A stretch of DNA of 62,969 nucleotides, filler included, from Collodictyon triciliatum (lineage: Eukaryota), in assembly GCA_043381765.1 (NCBI GenBank). It is 4 parts of 4 records of this genome, joined end to end, with 100 filler letters (N's around TTAATTAATTAA, not from the genome) between each part and the next. Parts side by side here need not be neighbours in the genome. Positions count along the whole stretch, not along the records: positions 51,987 to 62,969 come from JBHJMP010001371.1; 3 more parts are not named here. The stretch is one strand, 5' to 3'. The position numbers and the translations under genes are program-made. The notes below the pieces were generated by a model, which worked only from the letters and a program-made list of their open reading frames with translations, made no database searches and was not told the DNA's origin. Shown here piece by piece: positions 54,901 to 57,900 of this stretch (the first letter of the stretch is position 1; each line of letters opens with the position of its first letter).

Positions 54901-57900
54901 GGATGCATGTAAATCATCCGACGAGCCATGTGGGCTATTCACCACTGGAAAATTTGGTGTGAAGGCGAACTTCACAGACTCATTTGAAGTGCGCTCATTT
55001 GCTTTGCGAAACCATGTAAATCCGAAGATAGTAACAGATGAAACTGAAGGAGAACTGCATAATTTTAACTTTCAACCCAAAACACCTGGCAAAGCGATAA
55101 TATCAATATCAGGATTTGAAAATTGCTCTATTACATTTATGGCACAACGAATTAACATTGAAACATCGAGAATAGAATTAAATCCAATTATTTACATGAA
55201 TATATACGAAACGAATGTATTGAACTCTGTGGTTCATGTATATATTCAGGTTAAAAGGTATCCTTCCACACCCGGAGAATATCAAGAAATAATACCAGTG
55301 GTAATTACATCAACAAATACACGTTTGCATATTAGAGAATGTCTCACCTCTTACTTATCTGTAAAAGACGGATTGGCCCAAATTAGAAATCCTACGTTCA
55401 ATTTGATGTACATATTCATCTCAAATTACACGAAACTCCACATTTCTATATTTTTATGCGAGCACTCAATTTCATCTGGACACATGACCTTCAATATTTT
55501 ATATCCTTTTCCAATACCAAAAATGTTGTATTCAAAAGTGAATAATACGACTCTTGCGACTGTTGAAACCATGTCTCATTTAGTCCTCCCCACTTTTGCA
55601 GTCATGCATTTTGAGTTAGTGTATCAAAATGGATTGACATTAAATGTCACAGAGCCCTCACTTTTCAGCTTTGAATTCCATGAGGACTTTATCAACGCTC
55701 GTGTGGAATATGCTAGTCCCTCTGGAGTTGATTGTATTGAAGGCTGTATCGTACTATTTCCACAAGGTTGCTGTGGTAAAATTGTTCTAAATGTATCGAT
55801 GCCATTTTTCTCAGATATGCCCTCCTGCGAGTTACACTTCTCCGTATTAGGATGCTTTCGTATTGAGATTCAACCTGATGCAGAATCATCAACCTTTCTG
55901 ATAACCAGCTCCACCCGAAACTATAGTCTGCGACCCATATCACCTTTATTTGAATATCCAAAAATAAGACTAAACTTGTTTCTCATCTTAAATGATAACT
56001 CGAAAGCAGATTTTGTCGGAGAAGCCTCACTCTTTTGTTCTGAACTTGAATATCTTAACTATACAACACTTTGGCCAGTCACGATTGATTTCAATTTGTA
56101 TGAAACCACCACAATCAATCTTTACGCAAACATCGAGGGAGTGACCTCTCCTACCATATCTTTTTCTAAAGGAACGACTGTTTTACAACCTCAGCAATTA
56201 ACTGTTCGACTGGAGTCTTTTCAAGGTAAGTCATCATAATTTACAGCCTACAGTTTTTTTTAATTATCACGAAATTTTCAGGTCTTAAGATTTTAATGGA
56301 GTCTTATATACATAAAATGTAGGTACGAACATTTACAAAATGCTTGTCGATGCCAAATATAATGACAAGGTTGTTTTCCCAAATCTTCATAAACTGAAGG
56401 GAATGGTGTACATAGAGCCTTTGAAAACCGAGTTCATATCGATTGACGACACTGGTTTGGTTGTATTCACAGAAAACGCTCCATTCCAGTGTTACACGCA
56501 AGTGCATACACCATTTTATCTAGGGACTACTCCCTTTTACATTTGTCCTAATATGAGAGCCCAATATAGAAACTTTGATTTGGGTTACCAAGAAGGTTGC
56601 GCCAATCCCAAATGTGATTTGGGGTCTACATTCCAAATTCCAATATATCTCAACATTTTGAATGATTCCCTTATATCGTTTCACATAATAATTTCATATG
56701 AGAATTCATTCTTTGACTTTGTAAAGTACGATACTGCAAACTCTATCTCAGCATCGTTTTTGGACGTATCTGTAAATACAAAAGATAGTATCATTCAGAT
56801 AGTAGTAGCAGAAAGTTACGAATCAGATATTTCTGGGAGTCTAATTCACCTAATGAACCTGACTTTTTTGTCTTTACGTCCTGGGGTTGGACACATATCT
56901 GGTTTCATCAAACAAATAGCCACTTATCATAAGGCGAACAGAACAATACTATCTGAAACGTTCTCTAGTCCCATTGAATTTACCTCTAAAAAGATATATG
57001 TAGCGTGTTCACCACCTAATGAAAAGATTGAACTGTATGGAGAAATACACGAAGCAACTTTCTCTACACTTCCTGCCCTTCCTGAATATTTTACAGTATC
57101 AATATCGAATTTTGATATCAACGCGGACAAATATATTGATATAGTTGACGCAACAAAATTTATGGAAAGTCTATTCGATAGCACAACAACGTTTAAACTA
57201 GCATCCTTTATGGCTTTCGACTTTGATAATTCTGGCGATTTGTTAGCAAATGACCTACTTTATTTTCTATCCATCATATCGGGCAAATGGCCTCTATTTC
57301 GCATTGAAGTTCAATCTGCGTTATTTCCAGTGAGTCTGATCTACTATTTACACTAATACAGCAATAACTCCTTTAGTACATTTTTTTCTTCCTCCGTTAT
57401 TCAATTCAGTGATTAGATTATTAACTCATCTACCGCATAATCAGCAATTTTTTAAAATAAATAAATAAATGATTGAATAATTGAATAAATAAACAAATAA
57501 TAGGCTCCAAACCCTATGACTGTTTCATTTGAATGTCTGTACATGAACAACCTGAACTGCAGTGACATTCGAATCGAATGGACCATATGGGACAATGCTA
57601 GCGCCTCACTTGAGACACCCTTGACTGTCTCTAATTTTGAATCTAATATAGTTTATGGAAGAAACTCGACTGTATTAGAATACTGCCCATCTAAGCTGCA
57701 AGGGGAGATAAAGCTAGCATTTACCATCAGAACCCACAGCTATGTCCGGGGCTCGCATTACCCAATGGTATTTTAATACTTTTACCTATAGAATGCATTT
57801 CACAAATTTTGAGGCAATCAACAGCCTGATTAACTCATTTCAATATATTTAAAATTCAATTAATGATAACATGGTTAAAAATCGTTCTTATATATTAAAA

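Follow-up and report, generated by a model that had tools for sequence, protein, structure and literature searches.

A cohesin domain followed by a dockerin-like segment in the predicted ectodomain of a REJ-domain protein of Collodictyon triciliatum

A window of 62,969 nucleotides from the genome of Collodictyon triciliatum (GCA_043381765.1; by window we mean this whole stretch of DNA, four parts joined end to end) contains an exon encoding, one after the other, a beta domain, a cohesin, a linker and a dockerin-like segment. We put at about even chances that this exon is a diverged copy of an old and conserved extracellular unit of eukaryotes, the cohesin-dockerin tandem module. Judging from splice sites and reading frame, the module is predicted to belong to the extracellular part of a polycystin-1/REJ-like protein with a REJ domain. 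Few non-covalent protein locks are as strong as cohesin-dockerin pairs, which are regarded as a bacterial invention for cellulosomes. That very large surface proteins of eukaryotes conserve both partners next to each other, in this case together with REJ, suggests that eukaryotes might use this lock for ectodomain mechanics or adhesion.

Results

The module exon was read in the working frame 56316-57329 (+), of 338 amino acids, and residue numbers follow this frame throughout. The original prediction had placed a cohesin and a bacterial-type dockerin at 56616..57280, and all six peptide strings that it quoted are present in this translation; its limits 56616 and 57280, both within the one exon, correspond to residue 101 (DLGSTFQ...) and to residue 321-322. 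The module is exactly one exon and its 338 codons are open. The six-frame open reading frame (ORF) segments of the window (1,226 segments, 73,309 residues) provided the background for the ranks of motifs and profiles given below.

The claim that the exon encodes a cohesin-like beta sandwich was borne out. Pfam Cohesin (PF00963) matches the window copy at residues 103-182 with E=0.0021, its 18.7 bits being under the cutoff of 24.1, and the homolog stretches aligned to the window cohesin exceed this cutoff (43.5 bits in P0003, 45.5 in P0005, 45.1 in P0012 and 59.3 in P0018, where P numbers denote the homologs found below). Matches to Cohesin at E<=0.01 are found in 13 of the 15 aligned modules (alignment A1, which includes the window copy). 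The AlphaFold model of the module, made with A1, has a predicted local distance difference test score (pLDDT) of 72.3 and a predicted template modelling score (pTM) of 0.71, and the cohesin part reaches pLDDT 74-93. When the model was compared with PDB by Foldseek, the 13 top-ranked chains were without exception type I cohesins or constructs of CipA cohesins; cohesin matches include 3ul4_A (E=6.3e-9, target template modelling (TM) score 0.73), 4ums (target TM 0.76) and 1anu (target TM 0.73). The type I cohesin-dockerin pairs of C. thermocellum (PDB 1ohz, 2ccl, 3ul4, 4dh2) provide the best structural match for the fold. Despite the sub-cutoff Pfam score of the window copy, we thus hold it very probable that the beta sandwich following the N-terminal domain is a cohesin. 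NCBIfam gave no match on the module exon. The N-terminal beta domain, which is conserved jointly with the cohesin, is possibly Ig/Big_2-like, the Big_2 assignment being a lead from the atlas only.

An exhaustive phmmer search of the exon against 1.84 billion representative proteins (E<=0.001) returned 18 homologs, the best at E=5.7e-15, with identities of 21-30% and none above 30%. All but two of them exceed 1,400 amino acids and the longest has 7,947. One homolog, P0004 (E=8.2e-8), aligns to window residues 82-328, covering both the cohesin and the dockerin parts, and iterated profiles match the unit of ~330 residues over its full length (from profile positions 2-15 to 320-334). Full modules number 29, spread over 14 of the 18 homologs with at most three per protein, and their order is invariably beta domain, cohesin, linker and dockerin, with one of each. 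The same order appears in P0013 as split matches, and P0005 is a fragment of 207 amino acids that stops after the cohesin. The window carries a single copy of the module (six frames searched), which is 17-24% identical to the other modules. A search with A1 for longer proteins gave one uninformative match.

The tandem-bearing homologs carry Cadherin, Ig_TMEM132_4th/5th/6th, TSP1 and Dicty_CTDC domains (Pfam), and it is from domain content alone that we call such proteins eukaryote-type. Given its 29 occurrences in 14 distant and mostly very large proteins of cadherin/TMEM132-Ig type, the unit is better seen as an old eukaryotic module than as a recent bacterial insert. As a statement of origin, the earlier label "bacterial-type" is misleading: the nearest relatives are very large eukaryote-type proteins with the tandem, and the two bacterial-type homologs, P0010 and P0016, are multi-cohesin proteins (Por_Secre_tail, FlgD_ig) in which the match is confined to the cohesin. 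Features of the atlas point to bacterial Big_2/Dockerin_1 and Cohesin/Dockerin clusters, and we take them as leads only. Separately, cohesin-only matches recur ~700 amino acids upstream of full modules, beside TMEM132-type Ig domains (P0001 2833-2924 and 4649-4773; P0003 336-531; P0018 1228-1355), and these proteins thus hold more cohesins than dockerins.

Type I dockerins are defined by two 12-residue Ca2+ loops, each with a following helix and with Asp at position 12, the loops lying ~32-36 residues apart. In a canonical EF-hand pair, each loop lies between an entering and a leaving helix (helix-loop-helix) and has Glu as its twelfth residue. The window segment fits the former pattern: its two putative loops are spaced by 35 residues, have D278 and D313 at position 12, and are followed by helices that start at 276 and 311. 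AlphaFold places helices at 276-287, 298-301 and 311-321, and before loop 1 just a helix of four residues. With Asp at position 12, no long entering helix and EF-hand scores below cutoff, the segment departs from the EF-hand pair. Among the 73,309 six-frame residues there are three occurrences of the pattern D-x-[DN]-x-[DNS]-x6-D, and loops 1 and 2 form the sole pair 25-50 residues apart; shuffling within the ORF segments produced any such pair in 2 of 500 trials. Across 31 homolog modules, position 12 is Asp without exception in both loops, as in the window, and position 1 of loop 2 is likewise Asp in all 31. In loop 1 the window residues at all five ligand columns are frequent in the family, and over both loops the window agrees with the family at nine of ten ligand columns.

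Profiles of the family extend this likeness to solved structures. Searched against PDB, the A1 profile is led by the type I dockerins 4dh2_B, 2ccl_B, 4fl4_A and 1ohz_B (E=2e-7 to 9e-7, with a match over both repeats), and calmodulins enter the list at 4.8e-5. The profile of a second alignment, A2 (the dockerin segments of eight other module copies plus that of the window), is also led by dockerins (4dh2_B at 7e-8), and 12 of its top 15 chains are dockerin-bearing by name. Type I cellulosomal dockerins are thus the best match for the family profile over both repeats, sharing the pattern D-x-N-x-D-x3-D-x2-D with Asp at 12. In Pfam, residues 993-1051 of P0011, which align to the window segment, score 27.0 bits for Dockerin_1 (cutoff 22.9) and P0006 scores 22.9 bits; among the 15 modules at E<=0.01, Dockerin_1 matches five (best 4e-7) and EF-hand_1 one. 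With a profile of the 14 other A1 modules, the window segment ranks first of the 1,226 ORF segments (E=0.003). A kinship closer to solved dockerins than to EF-hand proteins, as seen in these profile comparisons, holds for the family and not for the single window copy. We regard the segment as probably a dockerin homolog, an assignment supported for the family and weak for the window copy. What had been called a dockerin thus stands as to its loop pattern and its place, which corresponds to that of homolog segments scoring for Dockerin_1; it does not stand as to a Dockerin_1 match of its own, and one of two leave-one-out profiles misses it. Checking against the Cohesin and Dockerin_1 profiles was, in the same way, positive for the family and negative for the dockerin profile on the window copy. 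A complex prediction of cohesin 96-236 with dockerin 256-332, made without our alignment and with an uncertain fold for one partner, scored 0.01 against a mark of 0.34, and we count it neither for nor against binding. An antisense open frame of 110 amino acids (56927-57259, -) lies over the dockerin-coding part, and nothing marks it as a gene.

The linkers of the homolog modules are 20-52 residues long. Sites of the form R-x-[KR]-R, similar to those of proprotein convertases, are present in 17 of 29, and 22 of 29 have at least two Cys directly ahead of loop 1 (A1 columns ~265-320); most homologs also have Cys at loop position 6. The linker and loops of the window copy carry neither R-x-[KR]-R or dibasic sites, nor the Cys cluster, nor the Cys at loop position 6.

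The module is followed by a chain of exons leading to the REJ domain (Table 1). Between the module and the first REJ exon there are four junctions, each in phase 0 and frame-preserving, with introns of 145-224 bases, and the module ends ~490 residues ahead of the REJ domain. The intron on its 5' side, of 97 bases, has the donor GTAAGT at 56226 and joins 56323 in phase 1. The match of PF02010 in 59187-59903 has E=2.2e-19 (69.9 bits, profile positions 39-245) and that in 60154-60405 has E=8.7e-4 (18.4 bits, profile positions 269-318). The two linking exons scanned, 57504-57767 and 57913-58623, are without Pfam match. From 60405 to the window end at 62969, the ORFs scanned gave no Pfam match at all, and no GPS/GAIN, PLAT or channel or membrane part was seen. 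Of the REJ-GAIN receptor proposed originally, the REJ exons are found in the same frame-preserving chain as the module; a GAIN domain is not within the window.

Upstream, the ORF 53241-54854 has no Pfam match at E<=10, and 54842-56236 has a chance-level one to ASFV_L11L (E=0.092). These upstream ORFs show no similarity to the corresponding regions of the homologs, either by phmmer or with a profile of the homologs' upstream 780 amino acids, so that a larger architecture common to the window gene and the homologs finds no support. The atlas gives the upstream ORFs a weak lead to Ig_TMEM132_4th (score 0.90, recognition 1812, under the mark of 2300), which remains a lead. No Cadherin or TMEM132 Pfam domain was found in the nine window ORFs scanned.

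Table 1. Positions, in the window, of the module, of its parts and of the exons around it.
Feature	Position	Strand	Basis
Upstream coding ORFs, ~1,000 amino acids	53241..56225	+	Open frames 53241-54857 and 54842-56239; sole fixed exon end is the donor at 56226
Module exon (beta domain, cohesin, linker, dockerin-like segment), ~330 amino acids	56323..57329	+	Acceptor AG 56321-56322, donor GTGAGT 57330
N-terminal beta domain, residues ~22-95	56379..56600	+	Homolog alignment from residue 3-11 on; AlphaFold strands, pLDDT 58-86
Very probable cohesin, type I-like beta sandwich, residues ~99-232	56610..57011	+	Pfam, AlphaFold, Foldseek
Linker, ~30 residues (~233-262), partly disordered	57012..57101	+	AlphaFold pLDDT <50 at residues 241-260
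Dockerin-like segment, residues ~263-325, two loop-helix repeats separated by a short helix	57102..57290	+	AlphaFold, family profiles
Putative Ca2+ loop 1, DINADKYIDIVD, residues 267-278	57114..57149	+	Asp/Asn at positions 1, 3, 5, 9, 12
Putative Ca2+ loop 2, DFDNSGDLLAND, residues 302-313	57219..57254	+	Positions 1, 3, 5, 12 kept; position 9 is Leu
Three exons joining the module to REJ	57504-57767, 57913-58623, 58847-59002	+	Canonical AG/GT at every end
REJ-domain exons	59187-59903 and 60154-60405	+	Pfam PF02010; acceptor AG 59185-59186

Discussion

How might such a module work? The dockerin-like segment would bind Ca2+, and we slightly favour the view that cohesin and dockerin-like segment bind each other at all. 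If they do, binding would probably take place in cis: the dockerin would dock on the neighbouring cohesin of its own chain and form a compact, force-resistant clasp in the receptor stalk. Pairing in cis is favoured because a flexible tether and a fixed one-to-one adjacency give a very high local concentration, unless geometry forbids it. The models are suggestive in the same direction: the pTM of 0.71 is above what we would expect, by our own estimate, for an unplaced dockerin of 70 residues, and the pLDDT of the segment is higher within the module (57-84) than when it is folded alone (51-70). Taken by itself, this cis-clasp mechanism remains tentative, at somewhat less than even chances. In homologs with R-x-[KR]-R linkers, the clasp could also keep the two halves joined once a proprotein convertase has cut between them, and the frequency of these sites together with that of the Cys ahead of loop 1 suggests such a cleavage with retention of the halves by the clasp. 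The unit would then be a self-clasp of eukaryotes, Ca2+-dependent and independent of cellulosomes, with its linker cut in most homologs, its halves held non-covalently and, in the window gene, a lock upstream of REJ; we consider this fuller picture unlikely as a whole. Were it true, it would be a third cleaved-but-tethered ectodomain device, beside GAIN and SEA, and it would give a polycystin-like receptor a high-force lock in its stalk, released by load or by loss of Ca2+.

Several observations weigh against reading the exon as a working cohesin-dockerin tandem, and most of them concern the dockerin-like segment of the window copy. Pfam Dockerin_1 (PF00404, cutoff 22.9 bits) does not match it at E<=10, and its sole Pfam matches are EF-hand_6 (E=0.03, 14.5 bits, cutoff 25) and EF-hand_1 (E=0.28, 11.3 bits, cutoff 25.4). 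A phmmer search of the exon against PDB returns the EF-hand protein GCAP1 alone, at E=1.6. The profile of the eight A2 segments without the window finds the window segment at E=2.5 and rank 3 of 1,226. Position 9 of loop 2 is Leu in the window, where 24 of 31 homologs have Asp and one has Leu. Folded alone, the segment is modelled poorly (pLDDT 60.3, pTM 0.44), and Foldseek with this poor model finds nothing at E<=0.001, its weak list mixing EF-hand proteins, troponin C first, with dockerins, so that the isolated fold does not separate a dockerin from an EF-hand pair. The placement of the two domains was judged by pLDDT and pTM alone, and no cohesin-dockerin interface was seen. Having neither the dibasic sites nor the Cys cluster and the loop-position-6 Cys of most homologs, the window copy may have drifted in function. 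The exon chain from module to REJ is predicted from genomic sequence, through splice sites and frame. Finally, REJ is absent from all 12 homologs scanned with Pfam, and the homologs are therefore silent on the REJ link.

Some of these observations are those that favour a rather unlikely alternative, in which cohesin and C-terminal segment do not bind each other. The segment would be a structural Ca2+-binding pair of EF-hand type that stiffens the stalk, and the cohesin would be a spacer or bind another ligand, in line with what has been proposed for the cohesin of TMEM132, which lacks a dockerin. Besides the sub-threshold matches of the segment to EF-hand models only and the place of troponin C in the weak Foldseek list, this alternative draws on the cohesin-only matches without dockerin in the homologs and on TMEM132, which, according to PMC6030884, keeps its cohesin although dockerin homologues are undetectable in vertebrates. 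Yet, the E-values of the family profiles are roughly a hundredfold lower for dockerins than for calmodulins, position 12 is Asp and not Glu in both loops of all 31 modules, and loop 1 lacks a long entering helix. Absence of mutual binding would also leave unexplained why a cohesin is constantly paired with the segment in 29 modules.

Alternatively, the pairing might occur in trans, the dockerin of one molecule binding the cohesin of a second one, whether on its own cell or on an adjacent one, which would make the REJ receptor capable of Ca2+-dependent homophilic adhesion or chain formation. Much the same had been put forward in the original prediction. The presence of both parts on one extracellular chain fits this proposal, for which Amy4 of R. 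bromii would be a bacterial precedent (PMC4611034), and the homologs are of cadherin/TMEM132-Ig type, a class that PMC6030884 ties to adhesion. Against it, the strict one-to-one adjacency and the flexible linker of 20-52 residues give a local concentration that should favour cis, unless geometry forbids, and the window dockerin is weak (no Dockerin_1 match; leave-one-out E=0.003 and 2.5). On balance, we find trans pairing unlikely.

Less likely still, the module might be a decaying copy, inherited from a coherin-like ancestor and drifting, with a dockerin part that no longer works and an exon that has become ectodomain filler. The low identity to the other modules (17-24%), the lack of any relative above 30% among 1.84 billion representatives, the loss of the Cys cluster, of the dibasic sites and of one Ca2+ ligand, and the sub-threshold Pfam scores of both domains are in line with decay. 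But the 338 codons are open, the splice sites are canonical and the frame is kept into REJ; nine of ten ligand columns are retained, and confidence in the model is high over the cohesin and moderate over the dockerin when folded within the module. Chance resemblance, a recent bacterial insertion or contamination, to which the mostly bacterial membership of the Pfam cohesin and dockerin families and the bacterial nature of the nearest atlas clusters might lead, is extremely improbable given the spliceosomal exon boundaries in a GT-AG chain with REJ, nearest relatives with cadherin, TSP1, Dicty_CTDC and TMEM132-Ig domains (the bacterial-type P0010 and P0016 matching the cohesin only) and E-values down to 5.7e-15 library-wide; a chance motif was ruled out by the loop-pair control (2 of 500 shuffles, and a unique pair in 73,309 residues), and a recent bacterial insertion by the splice boundaries and the eukaryote-type relatives bearing the tandem.

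The conserved tandem module, which remains the reading that we prefer, resembles several known systems and coincides with none of them. It differs from cellulosomes by its eukaryotic host, by the lack of a carbohydrate-active enzyme or scaffoldin context and by the adjacency of both predicted partners on one chain. It differs from type I dockerins in that most module homologs replace Gly by Cys at the sixth loop position and have a cluster of Cys ahead of loop 1. Unlike cellulosomal domains, moreover, the window copy lies under the Pfam cutoffs, and the pairing within the module is a predicted one. Proteins with both cohesin and dockerin on one chain exist in Archaeoglobus fulgidus, and Peer 2009 reportedly describes prokaryotic proteins that carry the two modules together. 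Foldseek placed the A. fulgidus cohesin 2xdh at rank 26 of the module's matches, and small bacterial Cohesin/Dockerin type I clusters of the atlas, of 199-225 amino acids, carry both Pfam families (leads again). In Amy4 of R. bromii, cohesin and dockerin share one chain and self-association has been proposed (PMC4611034). These prokaryotic single-chain proteins are like the module in having both partners in one chain, a likeness drawn from domain families alone, and they differ from it in being enzyme-linked or small.

Closer in domain content are the coherin, lefftyrin and hedgling cadherins of choanoflagellates and sponges and the TMEM132 proteins, which have an extracellular cohesin after a conserved region, with Ig/BIG domains (PMC6030884). 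That article thus agrees with the original prediction that non-cellulosomal copies occur in choanoflagellates: it describes cohesin domains in choanoflagellate and sponge proteins. The homologs of the window module resemble these proteins, since Cadherin and Ig_TMEM132_4th/5th/6th are present in them. The window gene differs: its scanned exons have no cadherin or TMEM132 Pfam match, and it is joined to REJ instead. In the portion of PMC6030884 available, no dockerin is mentioned after the cohesin. With the polycystin-1/sea-urchin REJ family, the window gene shares a REJ domain in the same exon chain as the module, and REJ is the sole part of that architecture visible in the window.

Cohesins in eukaryotic adhesion proteins (PMC6030884) and both modules on one prokaryotic protein (PMC4611034) are already known. 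We found no paper on a REJ domain together with a cohesin domain in the literature searched. Nor did this literature, which excluded Peer 2009, Nichols 2012 and the supplements of PMC6030884, yield a description of a conserved eukaryotic cohesin-dockerin tandem or of a link between it and REJ. The module bears on a gap left by TMEM132: in animals this protein retains a cohesin, and in vertebrates a dockerin partner is undetectable, according to PMC6030884.

Other features of the window

The window is eukaryotic-type DNA, with short GT-AG introns, microsatellites and runs of N, and its G+C content is ~0.30-0.44 except in one low-G+C block that contains N runs. Around the gene of the module, the region just 5' (51940-52900) has N runs, microsatellites of (TC/GA)n type and a long A/G-rich tract, the translation of which gives K/E/R repeats in several frames. 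Microsatellites also occupy introns of the REJ region (59900-60100 and 60680-60830), where one frame reads (TYIH)n and (KQTN)n and a trinucleotide run reads poly-Leu, poly-Ile or poly-Asn.

Elsewhere, on the minus strand, 2426-2974 is an exon of a homogentisate 1,2-dioxygenase gene (HgmA_N, E=2.7e-65), and exon-sized matches are found to a ubiquitin carboxyl-terminal hydrolase at 33938-34495 (UCH, E=1.1e-7) and to a cyclophilin-type isomerase at 25338-26024 (E=8.1e-5). The same strand has an open frame of 335 amino acids at 36904-37911, without Pfam match, which holds a repeat rich in Pro, Thr, Ala and Ser (TPASTTPAS...) and a (SGR)n run. Another, of 469 amino acids at 48361-49770, has no Pfam match at E<=0.01 and probably represents either a gene of one exon or one large exon. 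Between 41850 and 43170, N runs (assembly gaps) lie amid a repeat of short period, translated as HLSFIIY-like units, and G+C falls to 0.16 in 42001-44000.

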